A stretch of 64,000 nt of DNA from an uncultured Gammaproteobacteria bacterium (GCA_963821885.1 CAWGFN010000004.1:43485-107484); one strand, 5' to 3'; counted from the stretch's first letter, positions 7,195 to 29,852 are shown. Numbers and translations are program-made. The notes: generated from the letters alone by a model not told the origin.

Positions 7195-8475
7195 TTGATG
7201 ACCGCTCCCTTTGAAGCCACCGCCGAATGGGCCGCGCAGGCCGATCGCGACGACCCGCTGCGCGACTTCCGCGACCGCTTCCTGATTCCCCCGCACGGCG
7301 ACGGCGACACGCTGTACTTCTGCGGCAACTCGCTGGGCCTTCAGGCGCGCGGCGTGCGCCAGGCCATCAACGACGAGCTCGACTACTGGGGCGAGCTGGG
7401 CGTGGAAGGCCACTTCAAGGGCCGCCTGCCGTGGATGGACTACCACGAGTTCGTGCGCGAGCACCTGGCCGAGGTGGTCGGCGCCTCGATGTCCGAGGTG
7501 GTGGCCATGAACACGCTCAGCGTGAACCTGCACCTGCTGATGGTCAGCTTCTACCGGCCCACCCGCGAGCGCTCGAAGATCATCATCGAGGAAGGCGCCT
7601 TTCCCAGCGACCGCTACGCGGTGGAATCGCAGATCCGCTTCCACGGCTTCGATCCGGCCACCGCGCTGATCGAGCTGGCGCCGGACGAGCCCAACGGCAC
7701 CCTCTCCATGGCCGCCATCGAGCGCGCCCTGGCCGAGCACGGCGACAGCACCGCGCTGGTCATGCTGCCCGGCATCCAGTACCGCACCGGCCAGGCCTTC
7801 GACCTCAAGGCCATCACCGCGCTGGGCCACGCGCGCGGCTGCACGGTCGGCTTCGACCTGGCGCACGCGGCCGGCAACCTGCCGCTGGCGCTGCACGACA
7901 GCGGCGCGGACTTCGCCGTGTGGTGCCACTACAAGTACCTCAACGGCGGACCGGGCGCGGTCGGCGGCGCCTTCGTGCACGAGCGCCATGCGCGCGGCGA
8001 CCTGCCGCGCTTCGCCGGCTGGTGGGGCCACAACAAGGACACGCGCTTCCAGATGGGCCCGCACTTCGACCCCACGCCGGGCGCCGAGGGCTGGCAGCTG
8101 TCCAACCCGCCGATCCTGGCGCTGGTGCCGCTGCGCATCTCGCTGGACCTGTTCCACGAGGCCGGCATGGATCGCCTGCGGGCCAAGTCCGAGCGCCTGA
8201 CCGGCTACCTGGAATGGCTGGTCGACACGCAGCTGGCCGGGGTGCTCGAGGTGGTGACCCCGCGCCAGCCCGAACGTCGCGGCGCGCAGCTGTCGATCCG
8301 CGTGGAAGGCGGGCGCGAGCGTGGCCGTGCGCTGTTCGAGCAGCTGGTCGACGATGGCATCATCGGCGACTGGCGCGAGCCGGACGTCATCCGCATCTCG
8401 CCGGTGCCGATGTACAACCGCTTCCAGGACTGCCTGGGCTTCGTGCAGGCGGTGCAGGCCTGGCACCGCGGCTGA
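7195..8475 (+). CDS. kynU: Kynureninase
   Basis: 426 aa. LYFCGNSLGLQ, HYKYLNGGPG and SNPPILAL are kynureninase signatures. The gene is adjacent to ACMSD. Confidence 0.9.
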   Translation: MMTAPFEATAEWAAQADRDDPLRDFRDRFLIPPHGDGDTLYFCGNSLGLQARGVRQAINDELDYWGELGVEGHFKGRLPWMDYHEFVREHLAEVVGASMSEVVAMNTLSVNLHLLMVSFYRPTRERSKIIIEEGAFPSDRYAVESQIRFHGFDPATALIELAPDEPNGTLSMAAIERALAEHGDSTALVMLPGIQYRTGQAFDLKAITALGHARGCTVGFDLAHAAGNLPLALHDSGADFAVWCHYKYLNGGPGAVGGAFVHERHARGDLPRFAGWWGHNKDTRFQMGPHFDPTPGAEGWQLSNPPILALVPLRISLDLFHEAGMDRLRAKSERLTGYLEWLVDTQLAGVLEVVTPRQPERRGAQLSIRVEGGRERGRALFEQLVDDGIIGDWREPDVIRISPVPMYNRFQDCLGFVQAVQAWHRG

Positions 8476-9113: not shown

Positions 9114-10891
9114 ATGCCGAGATATCTTCTTGCAGTCGCTGCCTGCGTGGTCATCGCGGCGATGCCGGTCGCGCGGGCCGGCACGCCACCCCAGGACAAG
9201 GGATCGATTCCCGCATCGGCGCTGGACGCCACCGCGCCACCGACCACGCGCGCCCAGCTGGCCGCCGCCCGCCCCGTGCAGGCGCGTCACGCGATGGTGG
9301 TCACCGCGCAGCACCTGGCCACGCAAGGTCGGCGTGGACATCCTGCGCAAGGGCGGCAACGCCATCGACGCCGCGGTCGCCGTCGGCTACGCGCTGGCCG
9401 TGGTGCATCCGTGCTGCGGCAACATCGGCGGCGGTGGCTTCATGGTCGTGCACCTGGCCGGCGGCAAGACGGTGTTCCTCGATTTCCGCGAAAAGGCCCC
9501 GCTGAAGGCCACGCCGACGATGTTCCAGGATGCCGAGGGCAACGTGGTCAAGGGCCGCAGCACCCATACCTATCTCGGCGTCGGCGTGCCGGGCACCGTG
9601 ATGGGCATGGACGAAGCGCTGAAAACGTACGGCACGATGTCGCTCAAACAGGTCATGGCGCCGGCCATCGCGCTGGCCCGCAAGGGCTTCGTGCTGCAGC
9701 AGGGCGACGTCAACATCCTGCACGAGCGCAGCAAGGATTTCGCCGCCCACCCCAACGTCGCGTCGACCTTCCTCAACCACGGCAAGCCCTACCAGGTCGG
9801 CGACCGCCTGGTGCAGCCCGAACTGGCGCACACGCTCGAGCTGATCGCCGACAAGGGCACGCGCGTGTTCTACAGGGGCGCCATCGCCCGCGCCGTGGTC
9901 AAGGCCAGCGACGCCAACGGCGGCCTGCTGAGCATGCGCGACTTCGCCGACTACACCGTCAAATGGAACAAGCCCGTCGACTGCGAGTACCGCGGCTACA
10001 CCATCATGTCCTCGCCGCCACCCAGCTCCGGCGGCACGACCATCTGCCAGATCCTCCAGATCATCAAGCCCTACCCCTTCGCCAAGTGGGGCTACGGGTC
10101 GGTCAAGACCATCCACTACCTGGTCGAGGCCGAGCGCCGCGCCTTCGCCGACCGCAACACCTACCTCGGCGACCCGGCCTTCGTGCGCAATCCGATCGAC
10201 ACCCTGCTCTCGCCCGCGCACGTGGCCCGCATGCGCGCCGGCATCCAGGCCGATCGCGCGACACCGTCCAGCGAGATCCACGGCAGCCTCGGCGCCGCCG
10301 AGGGCCGGCACACCACGCATTACTCGGTGGTCGACGCCAAGGGCAACGCGGTCAGCGTCACCTACACCATCAACTATCTGTTCGGCGTGGGCCGGATCGC
10401 CGGCGACACCGGCTTCTTCCTCAACAACGAGATGGACGACTTCACCTCCAAGCCCGGCGTGCCCAATTCGTTCGGCCTGGTGCAGGGCAGGATCAACCAG
10501 ATCGAGCCCGGCAAGCGCCCGCTGAGCTCGATGTCGCCGACCATCGTGCTGCGCAAGGGCAAGCTGTTCATGGTCACCGGCAGCCCGGGGGGCTCGACCA
10601 TCATCTCGACCACGCTGGAAAGCATCCTCAACGTCGTCGACTTCGGCATGAACATGCAGCAGGCTGTGGATGCCCCGCGCGTGCACAACCAGTGGTATCC
10701 GGACGTGGTCTTCAACGAGCCGGGACTGATGACGCCCAAGGTCCAGTCCACGCTGGAGAAGATGGGCTACAAGTTCAAGACCGTGAAGTCCTGGGGCGCC
10801 GACGAGGCCATCCTGGTGCAACCCGAAGACCAGGCTCCTGGAAGGCGCCAACGACCGCCGTCGACCCGCGGGCCTCGCCGCCGGCTACTGA
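9114..10891 (+). pseudogene. ggt: Gamma-glutamyltranspeptidase, interrupted by two frameshifts (~9327 and ~10831)
   Basis: The signal peptide and N-terminus (..HAMVVTAQHLATQ) are in the frame of ORF 9114. The body (VGVDILRKGGNAIDAAVAVGYALAV...TTHYSVVD...) is in the frame of ORF 8896. The conserved tail RLLEGANDRRRPAGLAAGY* is in the third frame and ends at 10891. Confidence 0.85.
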
Positions 10892-11138
10892 GTCCCCCGC
10901 CCCCGGGGGAGCACCGGTCGCCCTGCCTGACAGCGGTCACGCCCGCCGCGGCAACCCAATTAACGCCTACGAACGATTGCGCGCCTACGCACAACCGTGT
11001 ATGAACGGGTCCAGGCGTCTCACCTTGAATTGACGCCCGCCGGTTCAGCAGGGAAAGACCGGCACGTGCCCGCCGCAAGGGGCGCACGCTGGAGGTCGCG
11101 GAGGAAGCGATGCAGCCGGTCAGCAGGAGCGAGAAGGG

Positions 11139-14100
11139 ATGCTGAGGCCCAGGGAATCGGCAGCCGCCATGCTGGTGGTTCTGGCGCTGCTTCTCGTGCC
11201 GTGCTCCATGACGGCACATGCGGCTCCGAAGACGTTGCGCGTGGTCGCCGCCGACAATTACCCCCCATACCTGTTCATCGGCCCCGACGGCAAGACCGAA
11301 GGCTACCGCGCGGACCTGTGGAAGCTGTGGTCGCAGAAGACCGGCATCGACGTGCAACTGGAGCCGATGCAGTGGGCACGCGCCCAGTCCCGGATGCGCA
11401 ACGGCCAGGCGGACGTGATCGACATGATCTTCCGCACGCCCACGCGCGACCAGCTGTACGCGTTTTCCGCTGCCTACGCCACGCAGAATGTCGGCATCTA
11501 CGTCGACCACTCGATCCAGGGCATCCATGACGCCGATTCGCTGCGCGGATTCAAGATCGGCGTCCAGCTCGGCGACGCCTGCATCGACCAGTTGGCCAGC
11601 AAGGGCATCGCCCCCCGCGACATGGTCACCTACCCCGATTACACCAGCATGTTCGCCGCCGCCAAGACCGGCGACGTCAAGATCTTCTGCATGGATGACG
11701 ATCCGGCCAGCTACTACCTCTACCTGTACCGCGACCAGCTGGCGTTCGCCCACGCGTTCACCCTGTACCAGGGCCACTTCCACTGGGCCGTGGACCACGG
11801 CGACCAGGCCACCTACGACCTGGTCGCGCGGGGCATGGCGCGCATCACGCCCGAGGAACGGGCGGCGCTGAAGCGCAAGTGGCTCACCAAGCCCGTCCAC
11901 TATTACGCCTACGCCCGCAACATCCTGCTGGTGGTGCTGGCCGCACTGGGCGTGTTGATCCTGGCCCTGGCCTGGATCTGGATCCTGCGCCGGGCCGTGC
12001 GCAGGCGCACCATGGAAATCCAGGAGAAGAACGCCCTGCTCCTGGATCAGTCGCAAAAGCTCGAGAATGACCAATCCAGGATGCGCACGCTGTTCGAACA
12101 AAGTCCGGATGCGATGTGGATGAAGGACAACCATGGCGTCTACATCGAATGCAATGCACGTGCCTGCGAGCTCCTCGGCCGTCCACGGGAAGCCATCATC
12201 GGCACCAGCGACGACAGCCTGCAGGTACCCACCGATCTCATGAAGAGAGTGTCCAGATTCGATGCTCGCATCCGCCGCACTGGAAAGATGCAGAGCGAGG
12301 AATTCCCGTTCACCGATGCCCAGGGCAAGGCACGCACCATGGAGCTTGCCAAGGTTCCGATCCATGGTCCCGACGGCCAGATCAACGGCCTGCTGGGCGT
12401 GGCCAGGGACATCACGGCGCGACGCCGGGCCGAACGCGAGCTGCGCATCGCCGCCGTGGCCTTCGACAGCCAGGACGGCATTGCGATCTGCCGCGCCGAC
12501 GGGTCGATCGAACGCGTCAATGAGGCCTTTACCGCGCTCACCGGCTTTTCCGCGCAGGAGGCCGCGCATTTCACGCTGATGCAGCTGGTCGGCTCGAGCC
12601 TGAACAACGAGGACGTCAACCTGCAGGTCGACTTGAGCATCCAGGACGGCATGACCTGGAGCGGCAAGGTCTGGATCAGTCCGCGCCAGGGCGTGCTGCG
12701 CTTCGTGCGCCTCACCGCATCGGGTGTACGCGACGACGCGGGCGCCCTGCTCTACATCGTCTACACCCTGCACGACCTGACCGCCGAGACCGAAGCCCGG
12801 GCGCGGATCGAACACCTGGAAAAGTACGACCATCTGACCGAACTACCCAACCGGTCCCTGCTGGAAGAACACATCCGCGAGGTCAATAACCAGGTCAGCG
12901 CCTCCAGCATCGATGATCTGTGCCTGGGTACGCTCCTGTTGATCGGCCTGGACAACTTCGCCACGCCGAACACCACCCATGGCCACCGGATCGGCGACCG
13001 CATCCTGCAGCAATCGGCGCAACGCATGCTGCGACTGAAACCGGCAGACAGCACGCTGGCCCGTTTCAGCGGCGACGTGTTCGCCCTGCTCATTCCCTGC
13101 TGCGCGCAAACGCGAAGCGAGAAAGCCGAGGACGCCATGCGGCTGGCACGAACGCTGTGCGAGACGCTGGCCAAGCCCTATGCGTTCCCCCGGATCGGCG
13201 AGGTGGTCTGCACCGCCAGTATCGGCGTGAGCCTGATCTGCGCGCCGGTGCACTCGGCCGACATCCTGCTGGGCCAGGCGGAACTGGCGATGTACCAGGT
13301 CAAGCACAACGGCAAGAATGCCGCGCAGCTTTTTGAACCCAGGATGCAGCGTGACCTGGAGGCGCGCCAGAGCTTGGCCAGGGAACTGCGCACGGCCGTG
13401 ACATCGAACCAGTTCGTGCTGCATTTCCAGCCGCAGGTGGACACCGAGGGCCGGATCGTCGGCGCCGAGGCGCTGCTGCGCTGGAACCACCCCGAACATG
13501 GCTTGCTGGCGCCTTCGACATTCATCGACGAGGCCGAGTCCTCGGGCCTGATCGAGCCGATCGGTCGGCTCGTGCTGCAACAGGCCTGCCTGCACCTGGC
13601 CGCCTGGCATGCCGTCCCCGAGCTTCGCGATCTGATACTTGCGGTCAACGTCAGTCCACGCCAATTCCGTCAGGCCGATTTCGTCGAAAGCGTGGCCGGC
13701 ATCGTGACGAGTTTCGGCGTGGACGTGCGGCAACTCAAGCTGGAAATCACCGAGCACTCGGCGATGGAGGACATCGACGACGCCGCGGCCAAGCTTCACG
13801 CGCTGCAGGACCTTGGCGTGAAGGTGTCCCTGGACGATTTCGGCACCGGAAGCTCCTCGCTGGCCTACCTGACACGGCTGCCGCTGGACCAGCTCAAGAT
13901 CGACAAGTCCTTCGTGCAGAGGCTTCCCGATGCCCGCAACGATGCCCATCTGGCCCGCAGCATCCTCGGCATGGCGCGCGGCATGGGGCTGGAAGTGGTC
14001 GCCGAGGGCGTGGAAACGCAGGCACAGTTCGCCTTCCTGCGCGACCACGGCTGTCAGCTGTTCCAGGGCTATCTGTTCGGCAAGCCGCTGCCGCTGGCTG

Positions 14101-15015: not shown

Positions 15016-15891
15016 TCAGCGCAGGCTGCCGCAAGCGTCGGGCAGGTCCTTGCCGGGGATGTCCATGCTCATGCAGTGCCACCTCACCGGCCTGCCGTGC
15101 AGCGCCACCGGCACCAGCATCAGCGTCCGACCGCGCAGCGGTTCGGCGGCATCGGTGTCGTCGAAGGTCATGATGATGACCCCCTTGAGAATACGCACGC
15201 CGCTCAGGTGCGGGATGTGCATGTCCGCGGGCAGGCCGGCTTCCTCGCTGTCCTTCGGCAAGCGGTGCTGGTCGCGCTGGAACGACGCGACGGCACGCTT
15301 GGGCGTACCCATCGATGCCAGTACCTGACTGACCTGCCCCTGCACGTCCTCGCTGTGCCGGAACGACATGGACAGCCACGCCACCGTCGCGACCACGACC
15401 AGGGCCACGCCCCCCCAGAACAGGCCGCCCCTGAACTTGCCGGGCGTACGAGGCGGCGGCACTTCCTTCACCCCCGCGGTGCGCAGTGCGCGCTCGCGCA
15501 CGCTGGTATCGCCGTCATCGGGCCGGGTGAGCAGATCCTTGAACATGACCAGCAGGAAGAAGACCAGCGTCAGCGTGAACACGCTGCCCGCCACCACGAT
15601 CAACCAGAACCCGATGGGACTGCTGTCGTGGTTGAAGCACAGCAAACGCATCGAGTAGAGGGTTTGGGTGCAGGCCACGCCGCGGAGTCCATGGGCCACG
15701 GTCGAGGCGAAACTGGCGATGAAGTACATCTCGCCGCCCAGCAGCATCAGGAACACGGCGAGCCTGCGCAGCCTGCGGCGTTCGGGCGCCCACAGGGCCC
15801 ACAGCGACCACAAAAGCACGCCAAGGCTGGCCACGCCCACGACGACCAAGAAGAAACCGTTGGAAGAAAGAATGTCGAGCAGTGACCTCAT
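15016..15891 (-). CDS. Polytopic membrane protein whose C-terminal domain resembles a type IV pilin globular head (tentative)
   Basis: 291 aa. There are about 4 N-terminal hydrophobic helices and then a fifth helix. The tail ...GVIIMTFDDTDAAEPLRGRTLMLVPVALHGRPVRWHCMSMDIPGKDLPDACGSLR looks like a pilin C-terminus with a Cys pair. No prepilin leader is present. Confidence 0.55.
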   Translation of the reverse strand: MRSLLDILSSNGFFLVVVGVASLGVLLWSLWALWAPERRRLRRLAVFLMLLGGEMYFIASFASTVAHGLRGVACTQTLYSMRLLCFNHDSSPIGFWLIVVAGSVFTLTLVFFLLVMFKDLLTRPDDGDTSVRERALRTAGVKEVPPPRTPGKFRGGLFWGGVALVVVATVAWLSMSFRHSEDVQGQVSQVLASMGTPKRAVASFQRDQHRLPKDSEEAGLPADMHIPHLSGVRILKGVIIMTFDDTDAAEPLRGRTLMLVPVALHGRPVRWHCMSMDIPGKDLPDACGSLR

Positions 15892-22848: not shown

Positions 22849-23244
22849 ATGGCAACCAAAAAAGCTGCTAAGAAGACCACCAAGGCCAAGCCGGCCGCCA
22901 AGGCCGCCCCGAAGGCCGCCGCCCCCATCAAGCCGATCAAGGACGCGCTGAGCAAGTCCGCCCTGATCGAGCACCTGGCCGCGCAGGCCGCCGTCGAGAA
23001 GAAGCACGTCAAGGCCGTGCTGGCGGCGCTCGAGACCACCATGTTCGGTTCGGTGCACAAGAGGGGCCTGGGCAGCTTCACGCTTCCCGGCCTGTTCAAG
23101 GTCACCTCCGTGAAGGTGCCGGCCAAGCCCAAGCGCAAGGGCAAGAACCCGTTCACCGGCGAAGAGCAGGTGTTCGCGGCCAAGCCGGCGACCGTCAAGG
23201 TCAAGGTGCGTCCGCTGAAGAAGCTCAAGGACGCCGCGCTCTGA
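22849..23244 (+). CDS. HU-family DNA-binding protein with a ~35-aa Lys/Ala/Pro-rich (histone H1-like) N-terminal tail
   Basis: MATKKAAKKTTKAKPAAKAAPKAAAPIKP... is followed by an HU fold (SKSALIEHLA...GKNPFTGEE...VKVRPLKKLKD). Confidence 0.85.
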   Translation: MATKKAAKKTTKAKPAAKAAPKAAAPIKPIKDALSKSALIEHLAAQAAVEKKHVKAVLAALETTMFGSVHKRGLGSFTLPGLFKVTSVKVPAKPKRKGKNPFTGEEQVFAAKPATVKVKVRPLKKLKDAAL

Positions 23245-23284: not shown

Positions 23285-23420
23285 AACCCTCCGGCCCCGG
23301 ACGTCCCGTACCGTCGCCACCCGGGCCATCGCCCGCCCCTGATCCCCGCCCCGTCCGCCGCCCACCCGCCATCGACTTTGGCTTATGGTGTCCTCACCCG
23401 GCACCGATGGAGGCAAGCCC

Positions 23421-23819
23421 ATGCAAGGCGGATGCGTATGCGGCGCGGTGCGCTACACCGCGGGCGAGGCGCTGAGCCTGGTCAACTGCCACTGCCGGAT
23501 GTGCCGCAGCATCAACGGTGGCGCGTTCAGCTCCTACGTGGTGGTGCGCTCGGACGGCTTCACCGCCAGCGGCGACACCCTCGCCGAGATCCAGGTCGGC
23601 GACAGCGCCATCAAGCACTTCTGCCGCCACTGCGGTACCCCCGTGTTCAACACCAACCCCGGTCGCTACCCGGGCTTGACCATGCTCTACCTGGGCACGG
23701 TGGAAGGTCACGAATCCCTTGAGCCGTCGGTCAATATCTACTGCAGCAGCAAGCTGGCGTGGGTGGATGCGCTGGTCGGGTTGCCGAGCTTCGATGAAGG
23801 GCGACAGCGTCGGGGATGA
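23421..23819 (+). CDS. GFA (glutathione-dependent formaldehyde-activating / CENP-V) family protein
   Basis: MQGGCVCGAVRY...CHCRMCR...HFCRHCGTPVF shows the Zn-binding Cys pattern of the GFA family. Confidence 0.8.
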   Translation: MQGGCVCGAVRYTAGEALSLVNCHCRMCRSINGGAFSSYVVVRSDGFTASGDTLAEIQVGDSAIKHFCRHCGTPVFNTNPGRYPGLTMLYLGTVEGHESLEPSVNIYCSSKLAWVDALVGLPSFDEGRQRRG

Positions 23820-23874: not shown

Positions 23875-23905
23875 GTCAAACGTCACCTGCAGCGATTTGT
23901 TGGGC
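23875..23905 (-). repeat. Truncated terminal attC remnant (cassette 8)
   Basis: GTCAAACG-TCACCTGCAGCGATTT-GTTGGGCGGC shares both end boxes (GTCAAACG / TTGTTGGGCGGC) with the 24752-24810 site but lacks the central arms. Confidence 0.5.
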
Positions 23906-23932
23906 GGCGACGGCACCGCTCCCCGACTGAAT

Positions 23933-24511
23933 TCAGCTACTGGCATCCAGCGCCGCTTTGTATAGGCTCTGTTTGGGCTCAGCCATGAGCTTTCTGACCA
24001 ACGGAGCAAACAGGTCGAGCGACAATTCAGGATGCGAGCTATCAAATGCGAGGTTGTCGTACTCAGCAATGAAGCGCGCCGTACGCTCGTAATGCTCTGA
24101 ATCTTTGAACCTGTCCCGCATATTGCGATCCATGCCCAAGTGATGGAAGAAGTTGTAGCCCTGAAAGATCGCATGATGCTTGATCATCCAGTGGTTGGCC
24201 TCCGAAACGAAGGGCTGCAAGATTGCTGCTGCCACGTCCGCATGGTTGAAGCTACCCAATGTATCTCCGATGTCGTGCAGGAGAGCACAAACGACGTATT
24301 CGTCATCTTCGCCAGCTTCTGCAGCCCGCTCAGCGGTCTGAAGGCAGTGCTGCAGCCTGTCAATGGGAAAGCCACCGTAATCGCCTTTGAGGAGCTGCAT
24401 ATGCGCCAGGATCCGATCTGGCAGTCCGGACATGAACTGCTTCTGCTCCCCGATGATTATTTGCCAATCATCTTTAGTGCTTTCTGTGAAAGATTTGAAG
24501 CTTGTTTTCAT
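23933..24511 (-). CDS. Cassette 8: HD-domain metal-dependent protein (PhnZ/MIOX-like His/Asp pattern)
   Basis: 192 aa from ATG 24511. IDRLQHCLQTA...VVCALLHDIGD...NH...NHW..KHH.. gives a multiple His/HD ligand pattern. Confidence 0.65.
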   Translation of the reverse strand: MKTSFKSFTESTKDDWQIIIGEQKQFMSGLPDRILAHMQLLKGDYGGFPIDRLQHCLQTAERAAEAGEDDEYVVCALLHDIGDTLGSFNHADVAAAILQPFVSEANHWMIKHHAIFQGYNFFHHLGMDRNMRDRFKDSEHYERTARFIAEYDNLAFDSSHPELSLDLFAPLVRKLMAEPKQSLYKAALDASS

Positions 24512-24582
24512 CGGACTACCTAGCTTTCCGCCCAGCAGAAGATTAACACCCCTTCGCCGGATATCTACGATGTCGACATGCC

Positions 24583-24657
24583 GGCCAACGCCTGAGTTCA
24601 CCGGCATTTGCGGAAATTGTCCCTGACACCGTTTTCCGGGCTTGTCTCAGTGAACTA
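24583..24657 (-). repeat. attC-like site (cassette 7), degenerate
   Basis: GGCCAAC-GCCTGAGTTCACCGGCA...TCCGGGCTTGTCTCAGTGAACTA. The left box and arm match the array consensus, but the right box is GTGAACT rather than GTTRRRY. Confidence 0.45.
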
Positions 24658-24747
24658 AATAGAGGTGCTCGGCGCTTTGCTAGTTAGCGTTCCACTGCAC
24701 GCGAAAAGCAGTACGGCGGCTAGGATGATTACGAAGGGCTTGCTCAT
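24655..24747 (-). CDS. Cassette 7: 30-codon putative lipoprotein mini-ORF
   Basis: MSKPFVIILAAVLLFACSGTLTSKAPSTSI* has a signal peptide with a lipobox-like LFAC. It starts 3 nt after the preceding attC box and is not in the supplied ORF track (too short). Confidence 0.3.
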   Translation of the reverse strand: MSKPFVIILAAVLLFACSGTLTSKAPSTSI

Positions 24748-24751
24748 GTGG

Positions 24752-24810
24752 TCAAACGCTCAGCATCAGCGGCGGCGCGCAGCGCCGTCCGCTGCATGCT
24801 GTTGTTGGGC
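24752..24810 (-). repeat. attC site (cassette 6), divergent arms
   Basis: TCAAAC-GCTCAGCATCAGCGGCGGCGCGCAGCGCCGTCCGCTGCATGCTGTT-GTTGGGC. The arms CAGCATCAGCGG / CCGCTG(C)ATGCTG pair with one extrahelical base. Confidence 0.75.
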
Positions 24811-24821
24811 GGCACGGCGGA

Positions 24822-25217
24822 CTAGGTTGCGCTTCGGAATGCTTCGCCCGCAGCGTAGGTGTCGAAAAACTCTTGGAAGCGAACGACCTTACCGTCGCGA
24901 AACGTCACGACGTGGACAAAATCGGACTCGTAGACGCGCCCCGTCTGCTTCGCCCGGCATCTCATGTAGCCCACGACGGCAACAGTATCTTCGTTGGCAA
25001 GAAACTGCCGCGGCTCAAGGACCTCGATGTCCTCGGCCTCCCGGCCGATCTGGACCCACTCGAGAAAGCCCTTGTGACCGCGATGTTCGCCAGCCGCTGG
25101 GTTGAACGGATTCTCCGGCTCGCACCACACGACATCAGGTGCCAAACGCGCCAGCATGTCCTCGATGTCGCGTCGCGCAAACGCGTCGTACAGCTCTTCC
25201 ACCGCGCCGATATTCAT
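24822..25217 (-). CDS. Cassette 6: SnoaL-like / NTF2-fold protein
   Basis: 131 aa. MNIGAVEELYDAFARRDIEDMLARLAPDVVW...DGKVVRFQEFFD is typical of ketosteroid-isomerase-like proteins. Confidence 0.75.
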   Translation of the reverse strand: MNIGAVEELYDAFARRDIEDMLARLAPDVVWCEPENPFNPAAGEHRGHKGFLEWVQIGREAEDIEVLEPRQFLANEDTVAVVGYMRCRAKQTGRVYESDFVHVVTFRDGKVVRFQEFFDTYAAGEAFRSAT

Positions 25218-25274
25218 GCCTGCACCTCTCCTACCTCCGCAAATTGCGTTTCGCCACGCTGACGTTCTACATCA

Positions 25275-25329
25275 ACCCAACGCAGAGCTAAGCCGCGCCG
25301 AAGGCGTCGGCTTGAATGATTAGTTAGGC
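25275..25329 (-). repeat. attC site (cassette 5)
   Basis: ACCCAAC-GCAGAGCTAAGCCGCGCCGAAGGCGTCGGCTTGAATGATTA-GTTAGGC. The TAA that would end the full-length Imm50-like frame lies in the box (25324-25326). Confidence 0.8.
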
Positions 25330-25767
25330 CTTCGCTCGCGCATAGACGCTTGCGGGAGGAATGCCCGGGGTAACGGAAGCCACCTCAATGGCTCGACACT
25401 TGAACTGGGCGTCCATGCCGTACACCGCCTCAAAACGAACCTAAAAGAGGCTTTCCGTGCCGACGTCAGAGATGACCAGCCCTGACAATGCATTCTGATG
25501 GTTGAAACCGCCGAGCTCCAGACCATCGACACCGTCAAATTTGAGCACCACGATGGAATGGTTATCGCACACAAAGTAGCCTCGTTCATCCACCTGGCTT
25601 GTCATTGAGAAGACGTGGACCTCAGCCACAAGTGCGGGGCTGAAGGGTGCGTCGAACTGGCGACAAAGCTCCAGACGCAGAACCTCTGCGTCATGAAAGC
25701 TCGGCCAACGTCCGAAGACGGACGTGATGGCAGTCGAGTTCGCGATGCGGTCTACGGGGGTGGACAT
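25324..25767 (-). pseudogene. Cassette 5: Imm50-like polymorphic-toxin immunity protein interrupted by an in-frame TAG at 25441-25443
   Basis: ORF 25441..25767 reads ..FGRWPSFHDAEVLRLEL...EVHVFSMTSQVDERGYFV..LKFDGVDGLELGGFNHQNALSGLVI... After the TAG, the same frame continues VRFEAVYGMDAQFKCRAIEVASVTPG.. to a TAA inside the attC. Confidence 0.55.
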
Positions 25768-25772
25768 CGAAG

Positions 25773-25830
25773 GCCTAACTCTGGAGTTCAGCGGCGAGCA
25801 CAGCGAGTCGGCTGGAACGACGGGGTAGGT
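25773..25830 (-). repeat. attC site (cassette 4), degenerate in one box
   Basis: GCCTAAC-TCTGGAGTTCAGCGGCGAGCACAGCGAGTCGGCTGGAACGACGG-GGTAGGT. The right-hand box reads GGTAGGT instead of GTTAGGN, and the adjacent arm has several substitutions. Confidence 0.65.
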
Positions 25831-25851
25831 GCGTGCGACGGGCGGCCGACC

Positions 25852-26379
25852 CTAGAACGCGTTGAATTCGGGCGCGTATGAGACGAGCCCATTGAGGCCG
25901 GACAGGGCCCCCGGGCTCAGGGCGAGGGCCAAGAATACGGCATCGGGCACCGGCCAGATACAGGTAAGCCCGAACGTGCTGGCAGGACGGAAACCGAAAC
26001 GGGGGTAATAGTTCGGGTGACCAAGGACGACAACGAAGCCAACGCCGCGTGACGCACAGAGCTCAAGGCCGCGGCGCACAAGGAGAGAGCCGATACCTTG
26101 ACGCTGATGCTCTGGTAGGACAGCCATAGGCGCAAGGCCTGCGCCGACGATACCCGGCGGTGCGCCAGGAACCGTCACCGGACTGAAAGCGATGTGGCCG
26201 ACGACGGAGTTCCCGTAGAGAGCCACCAAAGAGAGCAGGAGACCACCCCTTGACCGAAGTCGGTCGACGAGGTCGGCCTCGGCTGACGTCTCGAAGGCGG
26301 CCAGGTTGACGTGGTGGACGTCGCCGACGTGGGCTGGCGCCTCTTCAAGGACGTTAATGTCTGACAGCATGATGTTCAC
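25852..26379 (-). CDS. Cassette 4: GNAT-family N-acetyltransferase (YhbS-like)
   Basis: ..VLPEHQRQGIGSLLVRRGLELCASRGVGFVVVLGHPNYYPRFGF.. is the acetyl-CoA binding motif. The start is GTG 26379 or ATG 26370. Confidence 0.8.
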   Translation of the reverse strand: MNIMLSDINVLEEAPAHVGDVHHVNLAAFETSAEADLVDRLRSRGGLLLSLVALYGNSVVGHIAFSPVTVPGAPPGIVGAGLAPMAVLPEHQRQGIGSLLVRRGLELCASRGVGFVVVLGHPNYYPRFGFRPASTFGLTCIWPVPDAVFLALALSPGALSGLNGLVSYAPEFNAF

Positions 26380-26381
26380 GC

Positions 26382-26453
26382 ACCTAACGCTGGAGTTAAG
26401 ACGCCGACCGCTGGCGTAGCCAGTGGGCGGTCGGCTTGAATGAATTGTTAGGG
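26382..26453 (-). repeat. attC site (cassette 3)
   Basis: ACCTAAC-GCTGGAGTTAAGACGCCGACCGCTGGCGTAGCCAGTGGGCGGTCGGCTTGAATGAATT-GTTAGGG. Its reverse complement begins CCCTAACAATTCATTCAAGCCGAC and ends CTTAACTCCAGCGTTAGGT, very like the aadA1 attC ends as I recall them. Confidence 0.88.
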
Positions 26454-26467
26454 CGCGTGCCCCACTG

Positions 26468-27046
26468 TTACCAAAACTTATACCAAGGCTTGCGGGGATC
26501 AGTGCTCGTGCCCGTCGCTAGGTGTGGCGGGGCTGTCTTGGAACCTTCGATAAAGCCATACACGGCCACATTGAACGCGGTTTCGGCACCGATAGCCGGG
26601 ATGCACTCTTTGACGATAAACGCCGTAGCCAAAGCAGCGGATTGAGCAGCTTGCTCCAGCGACAGCGAATGCTGCCGCGCGATCTCCAGCGCGGGCGCTT
26701 GAAGAAGCGCGAGCGACTGCAGAACGTCGATGTGAGGCTCAGTGCCGCGTTGTTCAGGGGCGCCGCCGAACTTTGTGGAATCCAGTTGAATCCCGCACTT
26801 ATCCAGGAACGCTAGAACCAAGTTGGCCAAGCTTGGGTATTTGTCATTGGCTTCGTTCGACAGCAACACAGTGCCCGGTTGTGCAGATTCCAAGTTGAGG
26901 CCAAAGGACCGTAGCAGCAGGCTTCCGGAAAGGCGCGCGGCAGAAGCAATTGCCGTCTCCGGGTGTACTGCGCGGCCAGAGCCCGTGCCGGCCAAAAGTT
27001 CGACGTAGTCCCCCGTTGCTCGATTTTGCTCGTCTGTGATCAACAT
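26468..27046 (-). CDS. Cassette 3: hypothetical protein (192 aa)
   Basis: ATG 27046 is preceded by AGGAAAG. An attC follows 14 nt after the stop. No family recognised. Confidence 0.55.
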   Translation of the reverse strand: MLITDEQNRATGDYVELLAGTGSGRAVHPETAIASAARLSGSLLLRSFGLNLESAQPGTVLLSNEANDKYPSLANLVLAFLDKCGIQLDSTKFGGAPEQRGTEPHIDVLQSLALLQAPALEIARQHSLSLEQAAQSAALATAFIVKECIPAIGAETAFNVAVYGFIEGSKTAPPHLATGTSTDPRKPWYKFW

Positions 27047-27061
27047 AGAACTTTCCTAGCG

Positions 27062-27118
27062 CCCTAACGCTGGAATTGAGCGGCGGCGAAGCCGTCCGCC
27101 TCGAATGATTTGTTAGAC
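27062..27118 (-). repeat. attC site (cassette 2)
   Basis: CCCTAAC-GCTGGAATTGAGCGGCGGCGAAGCCGTCCGCCTCGAATGATTT-GTTAGAC. The stop codon of the upstream cassette ORF (27113-27115) lies inside the box. Confidence 0.85.
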
Positions 27119-27718
27119 CGCGGTTCGCTCACGTCTAATCACTTTTTTTCCGGACACTTCAAAACGCTGCTCCAGCTCAGGCCCAGTTTGTCCCTCCCGG
27201 TAGTAAGAAACACACATTCTCACAATTTCGGCAAGACGTTCGGCGTCGGCGGAAAGACCTTCTATTTCAGTCGGAAGGTAGTGCGCTGACTTGTACTCAA
27301 CGCCGGTTCCGTGGCTACGAACCCTCAGGAGCGAGAACGGATTTGGCTCGGGATCATCGCCCACTGAGGTGCTGGCCCACGCATCGTGCATAAGACGATT
27401 GCGGAGCTGTACAAGCGCTTCCAACTCACGGCGCAAACACTTCATGATTTGCTTGTCGCCTTCTGTTAGCGCCCCAGCCCATCGTTCGTGTAAGACCGAA
27501 AAAAATGTTGAAACTATCGGGCTGGCGGTTCGGTCGGTTAGTGCGCCTTGAAGCAGCAGCATCCTTTTACCTGAGAGAAGGAAACTATGCCCATCCATAC
27601 CGATAAGCAAAACCGTTGCATTTTCGAGAGCCCAAAGTACCACGGAGAACTTAACAACAAAACGCCCGAGAGCGCCGAAGGTTTGCTCATCAAGTGCGAG
27701 TTGCTCCTGAGTGTTCAT
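27113..27718 (-). CDS. Cassette 2: hypothetical protein with a HEPN-like Rx4H motif (LRNRLMHD); candidate RNase toxin / abortive-infection-type protein
   Basis: 201 aa from ATG 27718, preceded by GAGGA. The sequence looks helix-rich by eye (composition only, not predicted), with ..ELEALVQLRNRLMHDAW.. in the middle. The stop is embedded in the attC. Confidence 0.4.
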   Translation of the reverse strand: MNTQEQLALDEQTFGALGRFVVKFSVVLWALENATVLLIGMDGHSFLLSGKRMLLLQGALTDRTASPIVSTFFSVLHERWAGALTEGDKQIMKCLRRELEALVQLRNRLMHDAWASTSVGDDPEPNPFSLLRVRSHGTGVEYKSAHYLPTEIEGLSADAERLAEIVRMCVSYYREGQTGPELEQRFEVSGKKVIRRERTAV

Positions 27719-27733
27719 AGTCCTCACTGGAAG

Positions 27734-27793
27734 GTCTAACGCTGGAGTTAAGCGGCGCGCGTCAGCGCGTCCGCCTTGAATGAGTTGTTATGC
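27734..27793 (-). repeat. attC site (cassette 1)
   Basis: Plus strand: GTCTAAC-GCTGGAGTTAAGCGGCGCGCGTCAGCGCGTCCGCCTTGAATGAGTT-GTTATGC. It is an imperfect palindrome and starts 3 nt after the stop of ORF 27797..28285. Confidence 0.85.
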
Positions 27794-27796
27794 ATA

Positions 27797-28285
27797 TCAT
27801 GCGAAGCCATTGAACGACAGTTGTGAAAATTGCCTTGTTTCTGGGTCGTAAAGAGCTCCCCAGAAGCTACTCCCGCCGTCGCATACAAGTTCAGGCACGC
27901 TGCGCCAACGATCACGGTCTGTGCCTCGGGCATAGATCGGATGGCTTAGAAAAGCATTGATATATATGTATTTGTGACCGTTGATGATGACGCCTGCGTA
28001 CTGTCTGTAGAATGCAGTCGGGTTTGCAACTGACAAGCCTTTTCCGCAACAGGATTGGGACACCAGTTTTGAAAGTTTGGGCAGGTCTTGCTCAAGTTTC
28101 GCGATTACCTTGGGGCTCACCTTCCACACGCCGGTGATTGATCTTGGTGTCTCGCGAGAGCATTGCTGTAGGACGTGCCGTGCCTGCGTCGGGGGCAACA
28201 AAGTTGCGCGCTCAGACGAGCCCGGATCGGCAATCGCAGAAAGGCTTAGAAGAAGCAACGTGAGCAGGGTGAGTTGTTTATGCAT
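27797..28285 (-). CDS. Cassette 1: hypothetical exported Cys-containing protein
   Basis: MHKQLTLLTLLLLSLSAIA|DPGS signal peptide. The attC follows 3 nt after the stop. No family recognised. Confidence 0.6.
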   Translation of the reverse strand: MHKQLTLLTLLLLSLSAIADPGSSERATLLPPTQARHVLQQCSRETPRSITGVWKVSPKVIAKLEQDLPKLSKLVSQSCCGKGLSVANPTAFYRQYAGVIINGHKYIYINAFLSHPIYARGTDRDRWRSVPELVCDGGSSFWGALYDPETRQFSQLSFNGFA

Positions 28286-28524
28286 AACTGAAATTCGGTT
28301 GCATATTGATGTGTAATCCATCCACCTATCACGGCAAATGGATCGCTCCTGTCAGGCCAACACCCCATACATTGGATACTTATGCATGTACAGGCAACCT
28401 AAATCGTCGACCTAATCATGCAGCCTTTCCGGCTGGTTCGCTTTGCCATCCTTGCACCGGGTGCATGAGAGCGCAAGCGTGGCCCGCATGTCGGGCGCGC
28501 CCACCATGCACCATGACGGGGCAT

Positions 28525-28556
28525 GAAAAAAAGCCCGCGCAGTGCGGGCTTTTTTT
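28525..28556 (-). terminator. Bidirectional intrinsic terminator downstream of proA
   Basis: AAAAAAA-GCCCGC-gcagt-GCGGGC-TTTTTTT, 25 nt after the proA stop (28581). Confidence 0.85.

Positions 28557-28580: not shown

Positions 28581-29848
<1,268 letters not shown>

Positions 29849-29852
<4 letters not shown>

Follow-up and report, generated by a model that had tools for sequence, protein, structure and literature searches.

The region downstream of proA

The 64-kb window analysed here, that is, the whole stretch of DNA from an uncultured gammaproteobacterium, contains proA as the last gene of a conserved argF'-argG-argB-argC-argH-proB-proA cluster and, behind it, a 4.5-kb region (positions 23875-28361, minus strand) of eight co-oriented units of 168-708 bp each, which is very probably an integron gene-cassette array without an integrase gene in cis, i.e. 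a group of clustered attC sites without an integron integrase (CALIN). The arg-pro cluster is syntenic across the Xanthomonadales, and in comparison with more than 100 relatives the synteny breaks off at the 3' end of proA. The original prediction had described an AT-richer stretch between a GFA-family gene and the proA terminator, and this is borne out by a GC content of 0.50-0.64 over 23.75-28.5 kb versus 0.67-0.74 on either side; GC at third codon positions is 0.53-0.73 in the open reading frames (ORFs) of the array versus 0.82-0.95 in most flanking genes. The eight minus-strand ORFs it had listed are all present, one of them being 30 codons long only (24655-24747) and another (25324-25767) carrying an in-frame TAG, and direct-repeat families are spaced 609-680 bp along the array.

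A CALIN is defined by two or more attC sites on one strand, separated by less than 4 kb, with no nearby intI gene (Cury et al., 2016, PMC4889954), and we assign the region to this class, as had been predicted, because it has six model-detected attC sites so arranged and no intI in the vicinity. The six sites share the layout R''(RYYYAAC)-L''...L'-R'(GTTRRRY), are 55-72 nt long, lie in one orientation (their bottom strand is the plus strand of the window) with a spacing of 446-680 bp, and have a mean column identity of 66%. The integrase search used the IntI1 protein, itself validated as an integron integrase over its full length (NF011946, 799.5 bits). Against the 64-kb window its best match had an E value of 0.44 in tblastn and of 0.07 in phmmer run on six-frame segments, and no IntI, IntI pseudogene or other tyrosine recombinase was detected there. 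No intI adjoins the array in divergent orientation, and the region is thus not a complete integron.

The bottom strand of an attC site folds into a bulged hairpin with a variable loop, in which R' and R'' make up the recombination box and L' and L'' a stem carrying extrahelical bases. The integron integrase cuts between the G and the TT of the R' box, and two neighbouring attC sites can release the cassette as a circle, which inserts at attI, at attC or at a secondary GWT site. When the plus strand of the window was folded as single-stranded DNA, R' and R'' were paired and the central stem was bulged, a pattern also seen in the DNA fold of site a2. We built two covariance models. R1 comes from the six sites of the window only, its structure being set by hand; the wider R2 comes from 22 sites of the window, of the class 1 integron L081 on a Klebsiella IncN-R plasmid and of a Pseudoxanthomonas array. 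The window sites score 58-77 bits with R1 (E 1e-12 to 1e-17) and 50-72 bits with R2, the E values across both models ranging from 1e-11 to 1e-17, so that a covariance-model check of the kind proposed with the original prediction, made with these two models, returned six sites at 50-77 bits. Over the 64 kb, neither model (R1 with filters off) gave a further attC-like match above 16 bits; partial GC-rich hairpins of at most 16 bits, in DNA of host composition, were matched at 53.7, 18.8 and 61.4-62.7 kb and rejected as noise. In the R2 consensus, three bulged positions are on the 3' side of the bottom strand. Among the 22 sites, in an alignment that had been fitted to the model, 81.9% of pair cells are paired versus 30-52% with slid partners, five L-stem pairs have changes on both sides, and the observed covariation score was reached by none of 500 shuffles.

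R1 recovers all five attC sites of L081 at 36-59 bits. This integron has an intI1 98.6% identical to the IntI1 query, attI1 and the cassettes HAD, aadA2, cmlA1, aadA23 and qacL; four of its sites start at most about 11 nt from the annotated end of a cassette gene (one overlaps it), one of them directly after aadA2 and one after the aadA23 call, and the fifth lies about 75 nt past the amrfinder cmlA1 call, within the longer rgi cmlA5 call. In the Pseudoxanthomonas array R1 detects 11 sites, and in 109 other loci (about 1.8 Mb around the proA genes of relatives) none. In blastn, the best match of site a3 is the aadA2 attC (82.6% over 69 nt, E 4e-8), with attC matches in 4,768 plasmid records; the end sequences that had been likened to an aadA attC in the original prediction are those of a3, and the likeness is confirmed. 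The window sites also match a qacL-associated attC, and reach up to 91% identity with Pseudoxanthomonas attC. The Xanthomonadales-like attC clade includes the sites of aadA1, aadA2, qac and catB cassettes (Ghaly et al., 2021, PMC8352920). Judged by sequence, the window sites are Xanthomonadales-type attC, interchangeable for a covariance model with those of class 1 integrons, a clade assignment made from matches and identity to aadA2, qacL and Pseudoxanthomonas attC.

The Rfam search at gathering threshold found no family in the window, and a generic inverted-repeat search did not list the sites, in this case because of their bulges; a strict RYYYAAC...GTTRRRY regular expression returned two candidate spans only, one of which is a5. 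The first two of these results would agree with the palindromes being other intergenic repeats behind short genes, such as repetitive extragenic palindromic (REP)-like elements or terminators. A model made from the window sites alone nevertheless recovers five out of five class 1 attC and nothing in the 1.8 Mb of proA loci, a3 is 82.6% identical to the aadA2 attC, and the conserved AAC/GTT cores, the covariation of the bulged stem and the cassette-sized spacing are all attC-like. The REP or terminator reading is effectively refuted and retains next to no probability.

Table 1. Positions of the array features and flanking genes in the window; cassettes are cut at the G|TT of each R' box, and bit scores at attC sites are those of models R1 and R2.
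Feature	Position	Strand	Description
proA	28581..29852	-	glutamate-5-semialdehyde dehydrogenase; NCBIfam NF001221, 590 bits; conserved flank of array
proA intrinsic terminator	28526..28556	-	AAAAAAAGCCCGC-ACTGC-GCGGGCTTTTTTT; bidirectional in form; flanking A7/T7 runs
Leader	28362..28525	-	terminator to first cassette boundary; last ~55 nt AT-rich
Array-start site	28355..28377	-	ATCCAAT (28371-28377), 9-nt spacer, GTTGGCC (28355-28361); presumed first crossover G|TT
Cassette 1 (621 bp)	27740..28360	-	ORF 27797-28285, 162 aa, signal-peptide-like N-terminal segment
attC a1, 60 nt	27734-27793	-	77 bits R1, 71.5 bits R2
Cassette 2 (672 bp)	27068..27739	-	ORF 27113-27718, 201 aa
attC a2, 57 nt	27062-27118	-	69.4 bits R1, 64.2 bits R2
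Cassette 3 (680 bp)	26388..27067	-	ORF 26468-27046, 192 aa, widespread uncharacterised cassette-borne family
attC a3, 72 nt	26382-26453	-	61.8 bits R1, 54.9 bits R2; fold z-score -4.3
Cassette 4 (609 bp)	25779..26387	-	ORF 25852-26370, GNAT acetyltransferase
attC a4	25773-25831	-	62.2 bits R1, 54.7 bits R2; fold z-score 0.06
Cassette 5 (498 bp)	25281..25778	-	Imm50 immunity-protein gene 25324-25767, in-frame TAG 25441-25443
attC a5, 55 nt	25275-25329	-	58.2 bits R1, 51.2 bits R2
Cassette 6 (524 bp)	24757..25280	-	ORF 24822-25217, SnoaL-like, PF12680 E 5e-19
attC a6, 60 nt	24751-24810	-	61.3 bits R1, 50.6 bits R2; fold z-score -4.5
Cassette 7 (168 bp)	24589..24756	-	doubtful 30-codon ORF 24655-24747
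Site a7	24583-24660	-	R'/L' half canonical, R''/L'' half missing, centre is motif GAAAACGGTGTCAGGGACAATTT
Cassette 8 (708 bp)	23881..24588	-	ORF 23933-24511, HD-domain protein, PF01966 E 7e-7
attC remnant a8, 31 nt	23875-23905	-	no central loop or L' arm; 12.7 bits R1, 12.2 bits R2
GFA-family gene	23385..23819	+	distal flank, convergent with array; PF04828, E 1e-22

The proA locus in relatives and the start of the array

By protein search, the closest named relatives are Oleiagrimonas soli (GCA_014201555.1; locus L177), O. citrea (GCA_012395255.1; L179) and O. sp. MCCC 1A03011 (GCA_003267965.1; L181), the proA of which is 85-86% identical to that of the window. In these three species and in a metagenome contig (L180), an array lies directly after proA and is co-oriented with it, without IntI within 10 kb; model-independent attC matches have 53-56 bits after proA of O. 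soli, 41.5 in O. citrea and 36-41.5 in O. sp. MCCC. Among relatives with a proA of at most 78% identity (genome and metagenome-contig scans), none has an attC within 10 kb. These attC-free loci had first suggested an insertion unique to the window, an idea overturned by the arrays of the closer Oleiagrimonas.

The content of the locus differs from one genome to the next. Behind proA, O. soli has two cassettes (attC at 53 and 56 bits), an element of the IS110 family of insertion sequences (IS), a GFA gene with a truncated HU-like gene, an attC (52 bits) with its cassette, and an aldo-keto reductase gene; O. citrea has four cassettes (Rv1289-like, 137 aa, ASCH and glyoxalase) and then the aldo-keto reductase; O. 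sp. MCCC 1A03011 has five, the distal two of which (ASCH, glyoxalase) are common to O. citrea; and the metagenome contig has a glyoxalase cassette first. No window cassette occurs in any of the four arrays. Variation of cassette content among species at the proA locus had been set beforehand as a test of the prediction, and it was found: the Oleiagrimonas arrays, which occupy the proA-linked position too, have none of the cassettes of the window, and only O. soli has the GFA flank. This last point qualifies the claim that the array sits between core genes, which is right for the proA side but not for the GFA gene, absent from the proA locus of O. citrea and O. sp. MCCC 1A03011. The GFA protein is 88.7% identical to that encoded at L177 13631-14029, nucleotide homology to L177 begins exactly at its stop codon (23819), and the distal flank made of the GFA and HU-like genes has 87.7% nucleotide identity to O. 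soli in the same order. The HU-family DNA-binding protein of this flank (22849-23244, plus strand) has a Lys/Ala-rich N-terminal extension of about 35 residues, and its O. soli counterpart is truncated at a motif, GAAAAYGGTGTCAGGGACAATTT, to which we return below.

Pairwise comparisons place the breaks in homology. The leaders of O. soli and O. sp. MCCC, of about 270 nt, are about 94% identical up to GGGGTCTAC(T/A)TGTAGTTAGA and unrelated immediately beyond, homology halting exactly at the G|TTAGA of an attI-like site, GGGGTCTAC-WTGTA-G|TTAGA; since the difference begins at the core site, it looks site-specific. O. sp. MCCC and O. citrea are 98.8% identical in the distal region (ASCH, glyoxalase) and 96.8% in the proBA region, with unrelated proximal stretches of 3.7 kb and 1.5 kb between them; this difference includes the leader and thus looks like a replacement by homologous recombination. 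The glyoxalase cassette, first in the metagenome contig and last in O. citrea, has 85.9% nucleotide identity between the two, and the homologous stretch starts just downstream of the R' box, some 10 nt upstream of the ATG.

In the window, the first cassette boundary lies 220 nt past the proA stop codon, with the terminator in between. Measured over 40 nt at a time, the GC content of the leader is 0.72-0.75 and drops to 0.42-0.45 from about position 28420, and the leader's tail contains two direct TTAGGT motifs (28410-28415 and 28397-28402). This leader has no similarity to IntI in a focused search, nor, at the nucleotide level, to the leaders of the relatives or to the intI-attI region of L167, a metagenomic array with an intI remnant that is described in the next section. 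The GTTGGCC box named in the original prediction as the first cassette boundary is present and is the presumed first crossover, but it lies 10 nt from where it had been placed (28365-28371). The array-start site aligns with those of L177, L181, L180, L167 and the Pseudoxanthomonas array (L162), its inferred left-hand box being weaker than that of the relatives, and it looks, weakly, like a partial attI. The prediction that neither a tyrosine recombinase nor an attI would lie on the 5' side therefore stands for the recombinase, over the whole 64 kb, but is not established for attI, the start site looking partly attI-like.

Elsewhere, array starts consist of a pair of inverted core-like boxes 4-5 nt apart, often after a short GC hairpin: GGGGTCTACTTGTAGTTAGAC in O. 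soli, GGGGTCTAATAGTAG|TTAGGG in Pseudoxanthomonas and GTCGTCTACTTCACG|TTGGGC in the array with the intI remnant, to be compared with GCCCTAAAACAAAG|TT for attI1 in L081. With this layout, which is that of an attI simple site, the relatives appear to have kept an attI-like site. A search with the array-start pattern GGGGYCWAMYNNNNGYTAGRS matched only the loci from which it was derived and thus gave no independent test. On the reverse strand of the O. soli leader (L177 11285-11356), the 24-aa translation RKRERARHKKTPALRAQAFDRWLR shows a weak resemblance to IntI residues 21-43 (E 0.08, the search space being tiny); we set it aside as unproven and probably due to chance, as there is a stop upstream of it and it lies partly over the proA terminator hairpin, although its distance from the attI-like site is that expected for an intI start. 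An IntI1-like match about 4 kb downstream of proA in Lysobacter niastensis (L055 15347-16609) was likewise rejected, being a phage-type tyrosine integrase (Arm-DNA-binding plus Phage_integrase) and not IntI.

The motif GAAAACGGTGTCAGGGACAATTT of site a7 also occurs in O. soli, O. citrea and O. sp. MCCC. A motif of about 22 nt, GAAAAYGGTGTCAGGGACAATTT, lies in the centre of the disrupted a7 (24610-24640), with copies at L177 13580-13603, 14309-14332 and 15089-15112, at L179 ~12220-12260 and ~12845-12875, and at L181 ~15040-15065. One copy abuts the start of an IS110-family transposase gene in O. soli, a second truncates the HU-like gene of that genome, and a further one truncates an attC; the two variant copies of O. 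citrea are within attC sites, and the motif also marks the point at which homology between O. citrea and O. sp. MCCC breaks off distally. An IS110/IS1111-type element may have the motif as its end or its target, or may have left it as a footprint.

The distance from the kynureninase gene (7195-8475 in the window) to proA is about 20 kb here; the Oleiagrimonas genomes have about 7-10 kb between the two genes, and the metagenome-assembled genome L001 has about 2.9 kb. Between 8480 and 23819, the window carries genes of host composition for TspO, gamma-glutamyltranspeptidase, a PAS-GGDEF-EAL protein, a pilin-domain protein, an aldo-keto reductase, pyroglutamyl peptidase and a 1,060-aa BNR/sortilin-repeat protein, followed by the HU-like and GFA genes. 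The cassette array thus forms the proA-proximal edge of a larger variable region.

Cassette content, decay and mobility

Neither the proteins of cassettes 1 and 2 nor that of cassette 3 has a match in Pfam or NCBIfam. A direct repeat of 13-14 nt brackets the ORF of cassette 1, its first codons GCATAAACAACTCA (28270-28283) and the R''-L'' start of a1 GCATAACAACTCA (27781-27793) being a single-base indel apart. The cassette 4 protein matches PF00583 (E 6e-10) and PDB entry 4rs2 (E 1e-26), with no match to resistance-family models. In cassette 5, the Imm50 match has 28.3 bits (profile positions 1-87) up to the TAG and 46.1 bits (1-117 of 118) with read-through. The cassette 8 protein has a weak PhnZ-like N-terminal match (TIGR03276, E 1.5e-8) under the family cut-off. 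There is no resistance gene in the eight cassettes, and exact-protein look-ups with proA, GFA, the proteins of cassettes 6 and 3 and P0001 returned no match.

The original prediction had every ORF followed by a 55-75-nt palindrome, which is the case at six of the eight junctions, where full-length attC are detected by the models, but not at a7, a half site, or at a8, a 31-nt remnant. Similarly, the RYYYAAC...GTTRRRY boxes it described are found at six sites, of which only five (a1, a2, a3, a5 and a6) have intact AAC/GTT cores, the R'' box of a4 being degenerate (CACCTAC, with AAC changed to TAC). The stop codons it located inside boxes (27113-15, 25324-26 and 24655-57) were confirmed, the first being the TAA of cassette 2 within GTCTAAC, the R'' box of a2. 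Site a7 is recognised by neither covariance model and was fitted to neither; about 18 of the 24 bases of its R'/L' half are those of the R2 consensus in a base-by-base comparison by hand. Site a8 gives the best non-training full-length model match in the window, and both of its ends match a6, with 75% identity to the R''-side half of a6 over 28 nt (repeat family D6). With three of the eight attC sites defective (a4 mutated in R'', a7 missing one half, a8 internally deleted) and one nonsense pseudogene, in cassette 5, the array appears partly decayed. The other five sites look recombination-competent, and given their intact cores cassettes 2, 3 and 6 could be excised if an integrase were present.

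Expression by read-through from proBA, which had been suggested, is doubtful. The terminator hairpin (repeat I3) has 13-nt arms that are 100% complementary and a 5-nt loop, and a hairpin with a T-run occurs at the same position 3' of proA in L177, L179, L180 and L181. A crude consensus scan found no sigma-70-like match on the minus strand over 23.6-28.7 kb, and we see no Pc promoter for the cassettes. Because of the strong terminator ahead and this lack of a recognisable promoter, most of the array is probably silent cargo.

Cassette 3 is the one with a traceable history. Its protein has 223 homologues across phyla, and the cassette has a counterpart on metagenome contigs with 93% amino acid and 90% nucleotide identity over 646-649 nt. 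This 90%-identical relative has at least three different sets of upstream neighbours in metagenomic arrays, in which R2-detected attC sites precede the cassette 3 gene and the other cassettes have attC of their own. From such sequence comparisons, at least one cassette has evidently moved between arrays. In two of the loci with the 90%-identical cassette, L167 (4425-4710) and L168 (3030-3320), the array begins with an intI cut to about 55 N-terminal residues (49% identity to IntI1), divergent from the cassettes as in the canonical position and with a GCV_T-family gene directly before it; the cassette of L168 is followed by IS66-family genes. Here integrase loss is caught in the act.

A 65%-identical homologue of the cassette 3 protein is encoded by the first cassette of the array of Pseudoxanthomonas sp. 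JBR18 (L162), which contains 11 or more attC and lacks intI within 10 kb. An IS110/IS1111-family element (10600-11840) lies inside an attC of that array, a few bases upstream of the R' box (TTAACTCAGC | IS | GCGTTAGGC); targeting of attC is a known behaviour of IS1111-family elements. In four metagenome contigs (L163-L166; L163 9700-12450), a 65%-identical homologue occurs in a small low-GC island within a his operon, flanked by hisD on one side and by a PIN toxin pair plus hisC on the other. One degenerate attC-like sequence, GCCTAAACAATTTATTCAAAAG...CTAAAGCAGTAGGCC, follows the homologue and is not detected by the models, and the island looks like an isolated cassette, resembling a single attC site lacking an integron integrase (SALIN).

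Origin of the array and comparison with known integrons

In the scenario that we propose, eight promoter-less cassettes on the minus strand, each of which would once have ended in a Xanthomonadales-type attC, would occupy an old cassette platform of an Oleiagrimonas-like Rhodanobacteraceae lineage. The integrase gene of the platform would have been lost or never have been in cis, and the cassettes would owe their arrival to an integrase that acts in trans or was active in the past. That this is an old platform after proA whose integrase was lost has, in our estimate, an even chance of being correct. It is possible, though we consider it doubtful, that the site is a still-active acquisition platform without integrase in cis, which is conserved across an Oleiagrimonas-like clade, has kept an attI-type core (seen in O. 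soli and O. sp. MCCC), is serviced in trans by an integrase with its gene elsewhere or brought in by mobile elements, and admits cassettes at the proA-proximal end, as a complete integron does; if true, this would be a natural 'orphan attI' maintained over speciation, with a bearing on how CALINs form and persist.

At least four further genomes (L177, L179, L180 and L181) have arrays that agree in position and orientation, which speaks for a single ancestral platform and not for random hits occurring repeatedly, and thereby against an origin in which an integrase encoded elsewhere, or present for a time only, made a de novo insertion at a secondary attG site (5'-GWT-3') downstream of proA, followed by attC x attC additions, with neither intI nor attI ever having been here. 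Integron integrases do insert cassettes genome-wide at GWT, and small CALINs and SALINs may arise in this way (bioRxiv 10.1101/2022.09.11.507474); the first boundary is a G|TT, no intI remnant lies beside the array of the window or of any proA-linked relative, and 95% of CALINs are without intI pseudogenes (PMC4889954). On the other side, the start site of O. soli and O. sp. MCCC resembles the site beside the L167 intI remnant (GTCTACTT-N3-GTT), the eight cassettes exceed the two-cassette arrays that account for nearly half of CALINs (1,362/2,961; bioRxiv 10.1101/2022.09.11.507474), and the last attC, a8, is internally deleted instead of being a complete site fused to target DNA. We regard such an insertion as a tentative alternative, with a real but minor chance. 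The array could also have been split off a larger chromosomal integron by an inversion, a translocation or an IS, with intI and the remaining array elsewhere in the genome. Such rearrangements have been proposed as a source of CALINs, half of which are in genomes with intI (PMC4889954), and in Xanthomonas, CALINs away from the ilvD-linked intI occur in about 50% of genomes (bioRxiv 10.1101/2025.06.18.660453); the interval from proA to the aldo-keto reductase gene is variable, IS110-family elements occur in the O. soli and Pseudoxanthomonas arrays, and an IS-associated motif is found in a7. No IS or transposase lies in or beside the window array, however, and a position conserved across species is contrary to a recent split; we consider this origin rather improbable. 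As for an assembly chimera, in which a foreign cassette array was mis-joined to proA, it would account for the foreign composition, and the source may be a metagenome-assembled genome, but the Oleiagrimonas assemblies have arrays at the identical junction, the distal flank keeps the gene order and nucleotide identity to O. soli given above, and the cassette 3 protein and proA are each recorded on a contig of 342,754 bp, making this explanation very improbable.

Several points weigh against our reading as a whole. The attC call depends on covariance models built in this analysis. The integrase search spans 64 kb of the genome, and an intI elsewhere is possible, half of the published CALINs being in genomes that encode IntI (PMC4889954). 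The nearest proA in the comparison is 87% identical, and between O. citrea and O. sp. MCCC the exchange of leader and proximal cassettes has the look of homologous recombination and not of the action of an integrase. The window start site has no clear L box, and the window leader is not homologous to that of Oleiagrimonas, which weakens the reading as an attI relic for the window relative to its relatives. The lack of intI remnants beside the proA-linked arrays, mentioned above, belongs here too.

The element itself is ordinary. CALINs are common (279 in the 2016 survey, PMC4889954; 2,961 in RefSeq complete genomes, bioRxiv 10.1101/2022.09.11.507474), and arrays with Xanthomonadales-type attC are well described; as instances, the address after proA and the Oleiagrimonas-like host are new. 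Like the CALINs of Cury et al. (2016, PMC4889954) and IntegronFinder 2, the window array has its six model-detected attC on one strand with one co-oriented ORF per cassette, no intI within 4 kb or 10 kb (none in 64 kb here), no recognisable intI pseudogene, as in the 95% cited above, and cassettes mostly of unknown function without resistance genes. It differs from them in that its eight units are somewhat above the average of about 5 attC, and in that the position of the locus is conserved over several species with turnover of content, the relatives keeping an attI-like start. Sedentary chromosomal integrons are found in all genomes of a species or have more than 19 attC, with intI present (Cury et al., 2016, PMC4889954), as opposed to the eight cassette units without intI found here.

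The nearest parallel in host and site type is offered by the ilvD-linked integrons of Xanthomonas, of the same order Xanthomonadales and with the same attC type, and by the CALINs of that genus, which lie at species-conserved loci away from intI, decay frequently and were read as signs of ancestral integron activity (bioRxiv 10.1101/2025.06.18.660453). The window array shares the conserved locus and the decay, but its host is an Oleiagrimonas-like member of the Rhodanobacteraceae and its locus is downstream of proA; 'proA' does not occur in the text of the Xanthomonas study, where lamG, secF, recD and others are listed as CALIN neighbours. With the aadA1 and aadA2 attC of class 1 integrons (PMC8352920), the window sites have in common the R''-L''...L'-R' layout, the bulges, the identity of a3 to the aadA2 attC and detection by one covariance model, whereas the array is chromosomal, with no resistance cassettes and no intI1, attI1 or Pc. 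The finding widens the host range of the attC clade from which the aadA, qac and catB resistance cassettes presumably came. As in attG insertions and SALINs (Loot et al., bioRxiv 10.1101/2022.09.11.507474), cassettes are found outside a complete integron, with a G|TT first boundary and no integrase in cis, but here they form a multi-cassette array at a species-conserved position and not a scattered single insertion, and the start site of the relatives resembles an attI core with two inverted boxes and not a bare GWT. The value of the locus is that of a clean comparative case, with arrays at one conserved address, after proA, in several Rhodanobacteraceae species and no integrase in the 10-kb flanks that were read; the halt of homology at the G|TT core, together with the shared distal and differing proximal cassettes, bears on whether CALINs are dead remnants or platforms serviced in trans.

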